Shown here: piece by piece, positions 1,970 through 22,029 of the stretch
Layout: each line of letters opens with the position of its first letter
How positions within the stretch are numbered: position 1 is the stretch's first letter
NCBI GenBank assembly: GCA_018238625.1
Contig: JABCSY010000067.1
Span: 1 to 22,029 of the forward strand
DNA length: 22,029 nucleotides
Direction: 5' to 3'
From: Promethearchaeota archaeon
GTDB taxonomy: Archaea > Asgardarchaeota > Lokiarchaeia > Sigyniarchaeales > SOKP01
Notes under the pieces: generated by a model
What the model was told of the DNA's origin: nothing
The model's input: only the letters and a program-made list of their open reading frames with translations
Database searches by the model: none
Position numbers and translations under genes: made by a program

Positions 1970-2239
1970 ATGAGTTCACAAGCAGAAAAGAAAGAAAACC
2001 GCGAATCGCTCTTATTAGAGATTTTGGAGTACGACAATATCGAAATTATCCTCTCGAAAATAATAGTCCCTTTTTCCAAGTTTGAGAAAGCCTCAAGCGC
2101 TCCCGACCTATATTCTGGGAGCGAGAAAATGCCATTCGAAGCGCGCGACCCGTTATACAAGAGCGCGATGAGGCAAGAATTTGCCGACGCAATAAAAAAC
2201 ATGTTTTTTATATCAGGCGATCAGCCGGATCGACTATAG
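1970..2239 (+). CDS. Hypothetical protein (89 aa)
   Basis: ATG after an A-rich leader; protein-like charged composition; its 3' end overlaps the convergent gene by 32 nt. Confidence 0.55.
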   Translation: MSSQAEKKENRESLLLEILEYDNIEIILSKIIVPFSKFEKASSAPDLYSGSEKMPFEARDPLYKSAMRQEFADAIKNMFFISGDQPDRL

Positions 2240-2690
2240 GTTTATTACCAAACATAGCATAAAATTCTTCTTCAGTTAAATCTTTTGGATTTTTGTAGGA
2301 CACGAGTTTTTTAACAGCAAAAGAGCAATAATCCATTCCATATTTCTTCTCAAACAGATTGGGAAATTTTGGTAATAAATCGTACCATAAGGCCTCGTAA
2401 TCGTCGTTGTTAAAACCGCAAACGTTACAGAAATTTATTAGCATTTCTGTTTCTTTATCACAGTTAATTGGATAATCCCCGTTATCGTAGTATAATCTTT
2501 CAGCTACACGATAATAAGTTTGACCATTTAAATTATCAGTATTATCATTCGTATTTTCTATAAGCTCAAATAACTCTTCTCCAATGTGTTTATATGCTTC
2601 AATTAACTCTAAGGACAGCATACTTTTGTATTCTTCGAGAGCGATGGTAGTTATTAAGTTTTTAAACTTTTCCTTGCTTATTTTGATCGT
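2208..2690 (-). CDS. Hypothetical acidic protein; probably starts upstream of the track's ATG (2621), at ACG 2690 (160 aa)
   Basis: The frame is open from 2702 to 2208. Upstream of ATG 2621 it reads (ACG)IKISKEKFKNLITTIALEEYKS-M. An SD-like GAGGT (2702-2698) lies 7 nt before the ACG. The gene is well supported; the start is inferred. Confidence 0.65.
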   Translation of the reverse strand, partial: TIKISKEKFKNLITTIALEEYKSMLSLELIEAYKHIGEELFELIENTNDNTDNLNGQTYYRVAERLYYDNGDYPINCDKETEMLINFCNVCGFNNDDYEALWYDLLPKFPNLFEKKYGMDYCSFAVKKLVSYKNPKDLTEEEFYAMFGNKPIVDPADRLI

Positions 2691-9533: not shown

Positions 9534-10460
9534 ATGAAATCAAACACAAAATCGAAAATTTTAATCGCTTTAGGAATCCTTTTCGCTTTATCACCAATAA
9601 TTGCAACTAATCTTAGGTTTAATTTGGGCAGTAGCAACAAAAGTTCGAAATATAGCGATGATATTAATTTAGATAAGGAAAATTTGAAAATCTCAGCAAT
9701 ATCTGGAAAAATACATATAATCAATAATTCCGGATGGGTTGATTTTAAAAACGCGGGAAATTGTACCGGAGAAGGCACTTATTCCGAGCCTTATGTCATA
9801 AAAGATTTGGAAATTGATTACGCAGGCTCGGAAAGTTGTATCTGGATTGAAAATTCTGATGTATACTTTAGGATTGAAAATTGTACTCTCTATAGTTCGG
9901 GATTTTTCCTGAATATAGGAATCAGATTTTCATATGTTAACAATTCCCAATTAACCAATAATAATTGTTCAAATAATTATAATGGAATCTATTTATATAA
10001 TAGCTACAACAATACTATCGCAAGAAACACCATATGTGATAACTATAAATTGGGGATAGAGTTATCTCATAGTTTCTATAATAATATTACGGGGAATACA
10101 GTAAATAGAAACGAACGTGGGATACAATTATATTTAAGTGATTATAATACCATCTCGAAGAACGCCGCAAATAACAACCACTTTTATGGAATAGGTTTAA
10201 GTGAAAGTGATCACAACACAATCTCAGGTAATATCGCTAACAACAACCAGGAGGGAATATCTTTATATAGTAGTGATTATAACACCGTCTCAGGAAATAT
10301 TCTCTTAGGAAACGATGAATGCATAGTAGAAAACGACTGCGAAGGTAATATTCTCGAAAATAACGATTGTGGAATAATTCCAGGATATAATCTATTCTTT
10401 ATACTTGGAATTCTAGCAATTGTAGTAATCATTATAAGTAAAAAACTAAAGAAATCTTAA
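9534..10460 (+). CDS. NosD/pectin-lyase-fold parallel beta-helix surface protein with IPGY + TM + basic tail (Loki-CTERM/PGF-CTERM-like anchor)
   Basis: Signal peptide MKSNTKSKILIALGILFALS; 'GEGTYSEPYVIKDL'; 22-aa repeats GI.L..S..N.I..N...NN; C-terminus IPGYNLFFILGILAIVVIIISKKLKKS. Confidence 0.88.
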   Translation: MKSNTKSKILIALGILFALSPIIATNLRFNLGSSNKSSKYSDDINLDKENLKISAISGKIHIINNSGWVDFKNAGNCTGEGTYSEPYVIKDLEIDYAGSESCIWIENSDVYFRIENCTLYSSGFFLNIGIRFSYVNNSQLTNNNCSNNYNGIYLYNSYNNTIARNTICDNYKLGIELSHSFYNNITGNTVNRNERGIQLYLSDYNTISKNAANNNHFYGIGLSESDHNTISGNIANNNQEGISLYSSDYNTVSGNILLGNDECIVENDCEGNILENNDCGIIPGYNLFFILGILAIVVIIISKKLKKS

Positions 10461-10559: not shown

Positions 10560-12167
10560 ATGAAATCAAATGCAAAATCAAAAATAATCGTTTTAATCGC
10601 TTTAGGAATCCTTTTCGCTTTATTACCAATAATTACTTCTAATCTTTTTATTAATGCGGGAAATAACAAGACTAGCTTAGAATATGACGATGATATTAAT
10701 TTAGATAACAAAAATTTAAAAATCTTGGCAACTTCTGAGAGAATTCATATAATCAATAACTCCGGATGGGTTGCTTTTAAAAATGACGGAAATTGTACTG
10801 GTGAAGGCACTTATTCCGACCCTTATGTCATAGAAGATTTGGTAATAGATGGCGGAGGTTCGGGAAGTTGCATCTTAATTGAAAATTCCGACGTTTACTT
10901 TAAGATTGAAAATTGTACTGTCTACAGTTCAGGAGTAAGTTTTTTTTATGCAGGAATACGATTATTAAATGTAAATAATTCTCTGATAATCACGAATAAT
11001 TGTTCGTCAAATAATAATGGGATATATTTAAACAATAGTAATAATAACACCGTTTCGGGAAACACAGCAAATGATAACTATTATGGGATAAGGATAGGCG
11101 ATAGTAATAATAACACCATTTTGGGTAACATAATGAATGAATGCGGATTATATTTATCTGGAAATCTTGAGATGTTAAATTCACTTATCATAGATACTAC
11201 AAATCTAGTGAACGGAAAACCTTTATACTATTACCTCAATGAAATAAATTTAGGACCAAACAATTTTACAAACGCTGGGCAAGTAATTTTGGTCAGTTGC
11301 ACCGATTCACTAATATCAAACTTAAACACTTCTAAATGTTCTACTGGAATTTCATTACATTATTGTAATAATAACACCGTTTCGGGAAACACCGCAAATA
11401 ACAACTCTCGTGGGATATATTTATACAATAGTAATAATAACACCGTTTCGGGAAACACCGCAAATGATAATAATTATGGGATCTATTTATATGATAGCAG
11501 TAATAACACCGTTTCGGGAAACACTGTATATAATAACATCTGGGAGGGGATATATCTACAGCATAGTGATTATAACACCGTTTCGGGAAACACCGCAAAT
11601 TATAACCATTATGGGATATTTTTAAATGATAGCTATAGCAATACTATTTCAGGAAACACCGCAAATGGTAACTATTATGGGATACTTTTAGATTTGAGTG
11701 ATTATAACACCATTTCGGGAAACACCGCAAATAACAACACATATGGGATATGTCTACAGCATAGTTATTCTAACACCATTTCGGGAAACACCGCAAATAA
11801 CAACACATATGGGATATGTCTACAGCATAGTTATTTTAACACCATTTCGGGAAACACCGCAAATAACAACACATATGGGATATTCTTAGATGAATGCCAT
11901 AGCAATACAATTTCGGAAAACACCGCAAATAACAACTCTCGTGGGATATATTTATACTATAGTAATAATAACATAATTTCGAAAAATACATTATTAGGAA
12001 ACGATGAATGCATCGTAGAAGACAACTGTGAAGGTAATACTTTCGAAAATAATGATTGTGGTGAAGAATTTCCTTTCGAATTGTTTATTATTGTAATTTC
12101 TATTATTAGTGGAGGCGCTCTGTCGGTTGCTATAATCCTTATAAGTAAAAAACTAAAGAAATCTTAA
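10560..12167 (+). CDS. NosD/pectin-lyase-fold parallel beta-helix surface protein, paralogue of 9534-10460 with expanded repeats
   Basis: Closely similar N-terminus; 'NLVNGKPLYYY...GQVILVSC' insert; many N.TVSGNTAN.N..GI.L repeats; C-terminal TM ending ISKKLKKS. Confidence 0.9.
   Translation: MKSNAKSKIIVLIALGILFALLPIITSNLFINAGNNKTSLEYDDDINLDNKNLKILATSERIHIINNSGWVAFKNDGNCTGEGTYSDPYVIEDLVIDGGGSGSCILIENSDVYFKIENCTVYSSGVSFFYAGIRLLNVNNSLIITNNCSSNNNGIYLNNSNNNTVSGNTANDNYYGIRIGDSNNNTILGNIMNECGLYLSGNLEMLNSLIIDTTNLVNGKPLYYYLNEINLGPNNFTNAGQVILVSCTDSLISNLNTSKCSTGISLHYCNNNTVSGNTANNNSRGIYLYNSNNNTVSGNTANDNNYGIYLYDSSNNTVSGNTVYNNIWEGIYLQHSDYNTVSGNTANYNHYGIFLNDSYSNTISGNTANGNYYGILLDLSDYNTISGNTANNNTYGICLQHSYSNTISGNTANNNTYGICLQHSYFNTISGNTANNNTYGIFLDECHSNTISENTANNNSRGIYLYYSNNNIISKNTLLGNDECIVEDNCEGNTFENNDCGEEFPFELFIIVISIISGGALSVAIILISKKLKKS
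11370..11975 (+). repeat. Coding tandem repeat with ~66-nt period (core AACACCRTTTCGGGAAACACCGCAAAT)
   Basis: About nine consecutive units; copies starting at 11706, 11772 and 11838 share 45 identical nt. Confidence 0.9.
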
Positions 12168-12373: not shown

Positions 12374-12451
12374 ACGAAATCAAATTCAAAAATAATTATT
12401 TTAATCACTTGTGGCGTATTTTCTGATTTAAATATAACACCAATTAGTTAA
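12374..12451 (+). pseudogene. Relic of a third NosD-type gene (signal-peptide exon-like fragment only), beginning with ACG
   Basis: ACG AAA TCA AAT TCA AAA ATA ATT ATT TTA ATC ACT TGT GGC = (M/T)KSNSKIIILITCG, which aligns with MKSNAKSKIIVLIALG of 10560; stop at 12449-12451. Confidence 0.6.
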
Positions 12452-21222: not shown

Positions 21223-21372
21223 TTCAATTTTAAGACAACCATTCAAGAATTTTCTTAGCGATCAAGAAGACTAAATTCGTAAAATTTTCTCAATTCTCTT
21301 GTTTTTTTCTTTATTAATAACCGTTTCTAATCTGATTTAATTCAAATTACAACATGGAGTTGATATCGAAAA

Positions 21373-22029
21373 ACGTCAGATTTAGACCAAGTAAAAGGGA
21401 TCAACGCTCGACAAATTAAGCTCATGCAAGAGAGCGGTATTAGCACGGCGGAGGCTTTAGCGATGTCCCCACATAATATCATATCGGAGATCGATGGTCT
21501 AGGCGATAAAACCGCCAAAAAACTGATTTGGAACGCACGAAACGCGTTAGGAATGACTGAGTTCATACCAGCAGAGGATATCTACGAGAACACCGAGTAT
21601 ATTACCACCGGCTCTTCCGAACTAAACAGAATTTTAGGCGGAGGATTCCAAACCGGCAAACTTACCGAAGTGTATGGGCCCTTTAAGTCCGGGAAAACTA
21701 ATTTAGCCCACACGATCGCTGTAACCATTCAGCTTCCTAAAAAACAAGGAGGTTTAGGTTCGACTGTAGCCTACATCGACACCGAAAACACATTTTCTAA
21801 GGAAAAGATCAAAAGAATCGCTAAAAGGTTTGGACTCGAACCAAAAAAGGTACTATCGCAGATCTATCACGCCAGGATTTATTCGTCGGACCATCAATCG
21901 CAAATGATTCAAAAAGCGGAGGCGCTATGTAAAACTCGAAATGTGCGGCTAATCGTAGTAGACAGTTTGATGGCTCTATTGCGGACTGAATACGTGGGTA
22001 TTGGCATGTTAGCTCGCCGACAAAGCTTT
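21373..22029 (+). CDS. radA: RadA/Rad51-family recombinase (divergent), 3'-truncated by the window end; start codon anomalous
   Basis: Own translation: (ACG)SDLDQVKGINARQIKLMQESGISTAEALAMSPHNIISEIDGLGDKTAKKLIWNAR (HhH domain), EFIPA (FxxA), ITTGSSELNRILGGGFQTGKLTEVYGPFKSGKT, LPKKQGGL, YIDTENTF, LIVVDSL, EYVGIGMLARRQ. Missing from the ORF track because no stop falls in the window. Confidence 0.9.

Follow-up and report, generated by a model that had tools for sequence, protein, structure and literature searches.

A RadA-family gene of a Loki-type Asgard archaeon that is likely translated from an ACG codon

The bacterial genes infC, for initiation factor IF3, and pcnB use AUU start codons, and ACG and CUG are used as near-cognate starts in eukaryotes and viruses, where their use is under eIF1 control; ACG is not a listed start in NCBI translation table 11. 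For archaea, the passages on start codons in two reviews name AUG, GUG and UUG only (PMC7531240, PMC4705826), and a review of archaeal recoding lists no near-cognate starts (PMC8211752). A search of the full-text literature, from which subscription journals and supplements fall outside coverage, returned no paper describing archaeal initiation at ACG, AUA or AUU. Here we describe a RadA/Rad51-family gene, at the end of a 22,029-bp stretch from a Promethearchaeota archaeon (assembly GCA_018238625.1, contig JABCSY010000067.1), whose reading frame likely begins at an ACG codon behind an extended Shine-Dalgarno sequence, and whose relatives within the genus carry ACG, ATT, ATA, ATG or TTG at the same position.

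The start region of the RadA-family gene

The stretch analysed, hereafter the window, is the complete contig C4 of the source metagenome-assembled genome (MAG; G000), which comprises 4.29 Mb in 201 contigs at about 33% G+C and has an estimated contamination of 7.6%. As the window spans the entire contig, the RadA-family gene is truncated at position 22029. The features around its start are as follows.

21310..21319, + strand: conserved A/T block TTTATTAATA, about 55-60 nt upstream of the start codon; candidate archaeal TATA box
21334..21353, + strand: leader block GATTTAATTCAAATTACAAC, conserved, lying downstream of the putative promoter and ahead of the Shine-Dalgarno sequence
21354..21419, + strand: out-of-frame upstream open reading frame (ORF) MELISKNVRFRPSKRDQRSTN, 21 codons plus TAA, with an ATG that overlaps the Shine-Dalgarno sequence; relative to this ORF, RadA is in the +1 frame
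21356..21364, + strand: extended Shine-Dalgarno sequence GGAGTTGAT, complementary to the 16S 3' end at 8/9 bases
21361..21363, + strand: in-frame TGA that closes the RadA frame upstream, followed by TAT CGA AAA before the ACG
21365..21372, + strand: A-rich 8-nt spacer ATCGAAAA between the Shine-Dalgarno sequence and the ACG
21369-21373, + strand: A5 run, mostly within the spacer
21373..21375, + strand: ACG, proposed start codon; aligned with ATT/ATA/ATG/TTG in 52/70 homologous copies, the remaining 18 having ACG there
21373..22029, + strand: coding sequence of the RadA/Rad51-family paralogue, with a helix-hairpin-helix (HhH) domain and a RecA-type ATPase core; 219 codons, then the contig end
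21424..21426, + strand: first in-frame canonical start, ATG as codon 18; ATG here in 5/70 copies, CTT, CTC or TTG in the rest

An earlier note on the window, made from its letters, had placed the closing TGA at 21361-21363 and an in-frame ACG at 21373, and had held that the first in-frame ATG, at 21424, would truncate the N-terminus of the HhH domain. On recheck all of these coordinates were correct: the TGA lies three codons upstream of the ACG, and the next canonical start lies 17 codons downstream of it. In the window protein as read from the ACG, Pfam HHH_5 spans residues 3-56 (positions 3-56 of the 57 in the profile), as it does in a full-length sister copy on contig C73 of the same genome, and the NCBIfam RadA model enters at residue 2 (profile position 5), so that truncation is upheld; starting at ATG 21424 would cost 15 residues of the N-terminal HhH domain.

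The radA paralogue is present in 25 of the 42 genomes of the genus, from which 28 copies could be aligned at the start after a 5'-partial copy (L044) had been dropped. The codon aligned with the ACG is ACG in six of these copies, ATT in eight, ATA in seven, ATG in six and TTG in one, and the question raised earlier, whether the first codon of RadA orthologues would fall on the ACG, is thereby answered, with the ACG coinciding with the ATT, ATA or ATG of same-genus orthologues. Relatives outside the genus have ATG (four, from another family of the order, at the same codon or one codon later). An in-frame stop lies at most five codons upstream in 20 of the 21 near-cognate genus copies, and in 15 of the 21 there is no ATG, GTG or TTG from the upstream stop as far as codon +12; nine of those 15 have Met31 as their first canonical codon, and a start there would remove the first HhH motif. 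The six exceptions with a canonical option nearby are L034, with an ATG 15 codons upstream, L042 and L043, with ATG at +5, L038, with GTG at +6, and L041 and L013, in which a TTG lies inside the Shine-Dalgarno sequence. A pattern scan of metagenome contigs added 52 loci, 46 of them the radA paralogue (ATT 34, ACG 12), with one decayed copy bearing ATC and five unrelated loci making up the remainder.

Across 70 homologous copies (57 unique), codon 1 is ATT in 38, ACG in 18, ATA in seven, ATG in six and TTG in one, with nothing else found, and this restriction exceeds chance. Threonine at codon 1 is encoded by ACG in 18/18 cases, and at the internal codon 25 (Thr in 66 copies, Ser in three, one codon type unlisted) all four Thr codons are used. 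In codons 2-17 of the same copies there are 44 extra synonymous codon types versus 16 extra amino-acid types; third positions vary at 16/16 codons and second positions at six, and Arg13 and Leu17 are both invariant, each through six different codons. Codons 2-17 thus change mostly synonymously, which argues that they are translated, and by this pattern of substitution the N-terminal codons behind the ACG are under purifying selection. On a maximum-likelihood tree of 32 rows, at least seven start-codon changes are needed.

The 16S 3' end, read in contig C22 of the source genome, is GGATCACCTCCT, and its duplex with GGAGTTGAT has an energy of -10.0 kcal/mol. A value of -10 kcal/mol is reached by about 5% of 1719 unambiguous ATG starts versus 2.3% of internal control positions, and as so few ATG starts reach it, Shine-Dalgarno sequences are sparingly used in this genome and GGAGTTGAT is a strong one. 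Within the genus, the exact GGAGTTGAT occurs in 17/21 near-cognate copies versus 0/7 canonical-start copies, with mean duplex energies of -9.8 kcal/mol (21 near-cognate copies) versus -3.7 kcal/mol (8 canonical copies); since the radA copies share descent, this association between Shine-Dalgarno sequence and start type is a correlation and not an independent test. The spacer is fixed at 8 nt and variable in sequence in 46/46 metagenome radA copies, and the same length is found in the ACG and ATT genus copies bearing the exact GGAGTTGAT, bar L034 (9 nt). Further upstream, a CTTTAT(A/T)A block is kept at the same distance in same-genus orthologues. We take its counterpart in the window, TTTATTAATA, to resemble the archaeal promoter consensus; as a candidate TATA box it would imply a leader of about 30 nt, and the elements AATTCAAATTACAA and AATCTCAAATTACAA of the leader block are conserved in the genus and metagenome copies.

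It had also been suggested that a sequencing error, one A too many in the A5 run, separates the RadA frame from the ATG at 21354. Logan contigs from four runs in four studies reproduce positions 21250-21500 with the same A5 and ACG and with no indel or variant at 21369-21375, the whole stretch being identical in two of the four, a check that rests on assembled contigs rather than raw reads and in which one run may be the source sample. Among the 18 homologous ACG copies (6 genome, 12 metagenome), the distance from the upstream ATG to the ACG is a constant 19 nt despite A runs of 5-9 and differing spacer sequences. A homopolymer or sequencing error in the A5 run is therefore excluded, by the four run assemblies and by the constant frame offset in these copies.

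By its profile matches, the window gene belongs to the RadA/Rad51 family of this Loki-type (Promethearchaeota) Asgard archaeon as a divergent third paralogue. Residues 76-218 of the window fragment and 76-312 of the C73 copy align with Pfam Rad51, and a Walker A motif, GPFKSGKT, is visible in the translation. The C73 copy is full length (411 residues), 93% identical to the window gene, and is extended at its C-terminus by an additional HhH region of about 100 residues. It scores 330.9 against NF003301 (cut-off 259), for which the window fragment, at 223.1, falls below the cut-off because it is truncated, and 291.1 against TIGR02236, below the cut-off of 361.15; two other genes of the source genome score higher as RadA (about 450 bits on C63 and 430 bits on C58). 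These split equivalog scores, together with the better-scoring genes on C63 and C58, place the window gene as the divergent third paralogue.

The source genome holds four RadA-family genes in all: C63:19527-20789, C58:13891-14910 (-), C73:3648-4883 and the window copy. Given the estimated contamination, the 93%-identical pair on C4 and C73 could reflect mixed strains or true paralogy; three copies are present in one relative (G007). A separate feature of the family is an exact 31-nt insertion, about 790 nt into the gene, in 6 of the 28 genus copies (L002, L003, L004, L032, L035 and L036). It follows the DAIGGN codons and breaks the frame, leaving a 283-codon ORF with the normal C-terminus intact in the +1 frame. 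The insert folds as a bulge-helix-bulge (BHB), with a 4-bp helix (GGAA:UUCU), two 3-nt bulges and a 5-6-bp hairpin in which compensatory changes are present, and from this fold it resembles an intron that the tRNA-splicing endonuclease would remove from the mRNA. The insert position lies past the end of the window contig, and the window's closest complete relative carries the insert.

Near-cognate codons elsewhere in the genome and genus

A refined scan of the source genome considered codons that follow an in-frame stop, precede any canonical start by at least 10 codons and have coding-like sequence behind them. At optimal Shine-Dalgarno spacing, 26/48 such codons were near-cognates versus 412/2192 without a Shine-Dalgarno sequence (p = 7e-8), and 5/48 versus 7/2192 were ACG; ACA/ACT/ACC and AAG/AGG showed no enrichment in the same scan. 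Five parameter sets were tried, with p <= 0.014 for ACG in each, and removal of two doubtful ACG hits left 3/48 (p = 0.001). The ACG hit at C32:4696 is doubtful, being preceded by ATT. A filter-free count of triplets at each spacing after GGTGA/GAGGT was swamped by coding periodicity and gave no readable signal.

Twenty-one proteins were then compared with Pfam, namely 19 scan candidates, the C73 sister of the window gene and the product of a window ORF at 2208-2690. Domains start ahead of the first canonical codon in matches to response regulator, PheRS-beta, AhpC, AOR (aldehyde ferredoxin oxidoreductase), DUF1326, ABC-2, HIT, AAA_5 and amidohydrolase. First codons across the genus, with the position of the source-genome start or gene, are given below for five families, together with the gene for the initiation factor aIF1.

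G000:C60:33501, - strand: HGD-D-like gene; ACG 19 and ATG 10 of 29
G000:C7:53310, + strand: response-regulator family; of 30, ATA 15, ACG 5, ATG 2, TTG 2, and CTG, ATT, ATC, GCG, TTA and TTT one each
G000:C48:47776, - strand: DUF1326; 17 rows aligned, ATG 11, ACG 2, TTG 1, with 3 rows misaligned
G000:C150:63321, + strand: S8 subtilase with signal peptide, 1598 residues; 18 aligned, CTG 11, ATG 2, TTG 2, GTG 1, with 2 unclear
G000:C141:23533, + strand: pheT; ATA 17, ATT 4 and ATG 9 of 30
G000:C22:35797-36012, - strand: aIF1 gene; family relatives compared, L276-L295

The pheT gene of the source genome has its ATA behind AGGTGA, with the match to the Pfam B1 domain running from residue 2 onwards. 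Outside the genus, in 42 genomes of the order, pheT begins with ATG (n = 36), TTG (n = 5) or GTG (n = 1); with canonical starts in all 42, the near-cognate start of pheT is a trait limited to part of this genus. The suggestion in the earlier note that this lineage may initiate at ACG is thus supported by the orthologous codon in the radA paralogue, by selection on its codons 2-17 and by ACG at codon 1 of three more families.

Further candidate ATT/ATA starts behind GGTGA-type sites lie at G000:C60:38714, C100:20093 (-), C93:34356, C183:5844 (-), C150:27472, C37:13120 and C43:46313 (-), and at these loci the first canonical start would truncate a Pfam domain (AhpC, ABC-2, HIT, amidohydrolase, AAA_5). 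A response-regulator paralogue (L150, G056:C52) has GCG, two changes away from ATG, at the aligned first codon behind AGAGGTGAT, with the next ATG 40 codons downstream.

The same earlier reading had listed three ACG starts in the window, the other two being described as follows.

2208..2690, - strand: orphan ORF with AAGAGGTAAT upstream (duplex energy -8.0 kcal/mol)
12374..12451, + strand: 25-codon remnant TKSNSKIIILITCGVFSDLNITPIS, ending in a stop, with its ACG aligned with the ATG of the MKSN... paralogues at 9534 and 10560

Both sites exist as described, each with the AAA-ACG context that had been thought to mark a start; they offer little or no evidence on start codons, and the count of three was not sustained. 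The ORF at 2208-2690 has no homologue in the 41 other genomes of the genus and no Pfam match, and its start could be ACG 2690, ATC 2687 or ATG 2621. The site at 12374 heads a pseudogene remnant, where a decayed ATG is to be expected, and so bears no evidence on initiation. The remnant is the third copy of a tandem family in the window (9534-10460, 10560-12167 and 12374-12451) with hydrophobic N-termini of the form MKSN.KSKI...

An ordinary initiator tRNA(CAU) gene, with three G:C pairs in the anticodon stem, was found at G000:C22:10405-10510 (+). Aragorn reported 12-19 tRNAs in the genome and the Rfam tRNA model 28 among the 150 of 351 candidates scored, low counts that are probably due to introns. 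The initiator gene itself has an intron in the T-arm region, and many tRNA genes of the genome contain introns that are long or sit in unusual positions. Searching for the initiator anticodon stem by regular expression returned the CAU gene and two unrelated matches only; given the few tRNAs detected, a second initiator-like tRNA with another anticodon may exist.

The passages concerned in two papers describe archaeal aIF1 as destabilizing complexes on non-AUG (AUU) model mRNAs (PMC4705826, PMC6237735), and one of them describes, for a Sulfolobus system, binding of an AUU model mRNA that is blocked by aIF1 (PMC4705826). In 19 of 22 aIF1 (SUI1) sequences of the family, there is no ATG, GTG or TTG between the in-frame TGA and the conserved zinc-knuckle, and a conserved ATT, replaced by ATC in one sequence, is found instead, 9 nt behind AGGTTGTGA; the exceptions have an in-frame GTG or TTG. 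From this arrangement, the fidelity factor aIF1 itself probably starts at AUU, which would allow an autoregulatory loop of the kind known for infC. Copy number does not set the genus apart from its relatives, with mostly one aIF1 gene per genome across 81 genomes. The source genome has a second gene (C60:41226-41441, -), which matches SUI1 at 75 bits versus 56 for the genus-typical copy and which, most relatives having one copy, may represent contamination or transfer.

Readings of the ACG codon

We consider it likely, from the comparisons above, that the RadA paralogue is translated from ACG 21373 by near-cognate initiation. An mRNA leader of about 30 nt carrying the extended Shine-Dalgarno sequence GGAGUUGAU would pair with the 16S 3' end, and this pairing would set the codon 8 nt downstream in the P site; the codon is ACG here, whereas sister species have AUU or AUA and more distant relatives have AUG. 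The ordinary initiator tRNA (CAU) would read ACG with one mismatch, and the protein would start M-SDLDQVKGIN, with the N-terminal peptide (M)SDLDQVKGINAR. The weak start codon would be offset by the strong Shine-Dalgarno sequence, and output would probably be low and may hinge on the level of aIF1. We infer the decoding of ACG by Met-tRNAi, the expression level and the dependence on aIF1 from sequence.

Several observations weigh against initiation at the ACG. The genome makes only weak use of Shine-Dalgarno sequences, and the distance from GGAGTTGAT to the ACG is 2-3 nt above the genomic mode (GGAG at -17), yet within the range observed for ATG starts. On the 32-row tree a single change could account for the ACG copies, which may therefore not be independent of each other. 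All 18 ACG copies of radA also bear an out-of-frame ATG that overlaps the Shine-Dalgarno sequence. A first, crude scan that took in all codons behind any Shine-Dalgarno-like site showed no enrichment, with 110 near-cognates versus 100.8 expected, and one ACG candidate of the refined scan, in the AOR gene (C32:8208), was rejected, as it is codon 2 behind an ATA (7 genomes) or ATG (3 genomes). The 24 runs found to contain the stretch included no listed RNA run, and ACG is a poor initiator in bacterial systems.

The out-of-frame ATG opens another route to the same protein, which we regard as improbable but as the foremost of the alternatives: translation would begin at ATG 21354 and enter the RadA frame either through a +1 slip of the ribosome at the A run (AAA-A) or because the RNA polymerase had dropped one A, giving a product MELISK-TSDLDQ... 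with the peptide MELISKTSDLDQVK. A counterpart of ATG 21354 is present at a constant +1 offset in 18/18 ACG copies (6 genome, 12 metagenome), which lends a +1 shift some plausibility in the ACG clade; tRNA-Lys is able to re-pair with AAA once such a slip has occurred, and the shift site is preceded, a few bases upstream, by a Shine-Dalgarno-like sequence, which brings prfB to mind. Yet the upstream ATG is replaced by TAG in six ATT genus copies with the exact GGAGTTGAT and in 4/7 ATA copies, is TTG in the other 3/7 ATA copies and is absent from 32/34 metagenome ATT copies, and these copies, which share the leader and spacing, still need a start at the aligned codon. The 0-frame A-site codon, AAC, is neither a stop nor obviously slow, and A5 is short for transcriptional slippage; among the homologues compared, neither the conserved 0-frame start nor the slow A-site codon of a programmed +1 frameshift was found. 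The other families divide on this point, since most HGD-D ACG copies have an out-of-frame ATG inside the Shine-Dalgarno-like motif, whereas the response-regulator ACG starts have no such upstream ATG, and in DUF1326 an ATG overlapping the Shine-Dalgarno sequence is present with ATG and with ACG starts alike.

Slightly less probable again is a start at ATG 21424 in this copy, with the first HhH helix missing and the ACG region an untranslated leader. That ATG exists and would be the choice of gene finders restricted to ATG/GTG/TTG, and both starts could be used; against it, ATG occupies codon 18 in only 5/70 copies, purifying selection acts on codons 2-17 throughout the family, the matches to HHH_5 and to the RadA model set in at residues 2-3, and no Shine-Dalgarno sequence lies ahead of 21424. 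We give little credence to conversion of the ACG to AUG in the mRNA by C-to-U editing in the style of plant organelles, followed by canonical initiation, even though ACG to ATG is the single change that such editing makes and ACG recurs at the first codons of several genes: sister species carry ATT, ATA or CTG at the same positions, which C-to-U editing could not turn into AUG, and to our knowledge no C-to-U editing of mRNA is known in archaea. Least probable of all is an assembly error, or a copy that is losing its start and becoming a pseudogene. The contamination estimate, the second copy on C73 and the frame-breaking 31-nt insertion downstream in the closest complete relatives would fit such an origin, but four run assemblies agree, 18 ACG copies maintain the frame, which is intact and conserved, and the insertion is BHB-shaped and spliceable-looking with an intact frame behind it. 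Near-cognate initiation at ACG 21373 is thus the reading that we prefer.

Comparison with known systems

More tentatively, and with less than even confidence, the genus as a whole may have relaxed or re-tuned its start selection, with AUA, AUU, ACG and CUG serving as regular starts on mRNAs with Shine-Dalgarno sequences, those of essential genes such as pheT included, with aIF1 (itself with an AUU start) setting the stringency in an autoregulatory manner, and with a regulon of weak starts, the RadA paralogue among them, governed by initiation fidelity. If near-cognate initiation is the correct reading, gene finders truncate or miss the N-termini of dozens of genes in these genomes, including domains of RadA-family proteins, response regulators and PheRS, and expression of a recombinase paralogue would be kept low or dependent on a factor. 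An AUU start for aIF1 would suggest a fidelity-feedback loop analogous to those of infC and eIF1.

One likeness is to infC and pcnB, in which, as here, a start one base from AUG stands behind a ribosome-binding site, is conserved in relatives and implies low or factor-sensitive expression; the resemblance to infC extends to the aIF1 of this family, which apparently starts at AUU too. The systems differ in that the host here is archaeal, with aIF1 and an aIF2 of eukaryote type rather than IF3, in that ACG is mismatched at the middle position, and in that many genes of one genus are affected, including the essential pheT. A second likeness, to prfB-type +1 frameshifting, lies in a Shine-Dalgarno-like element just upstream of a slippery codon with a 0-frame ATG upstream; unlike in prfB, however, the codon in the 0-frame A site is neither a stop nor rare, and the upstream ATG is missing from most homologues that share the leader. 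With the ACG and CUG starts of eukaryotes and viruses, the locus would share an initiator tRNA that tolerates one mismatch and a stringency set by eIF1, of which aIF1 is the homologue, but the start would here be placed by Shine-Dalgarno pairing rather than by scanning and Kozak context.

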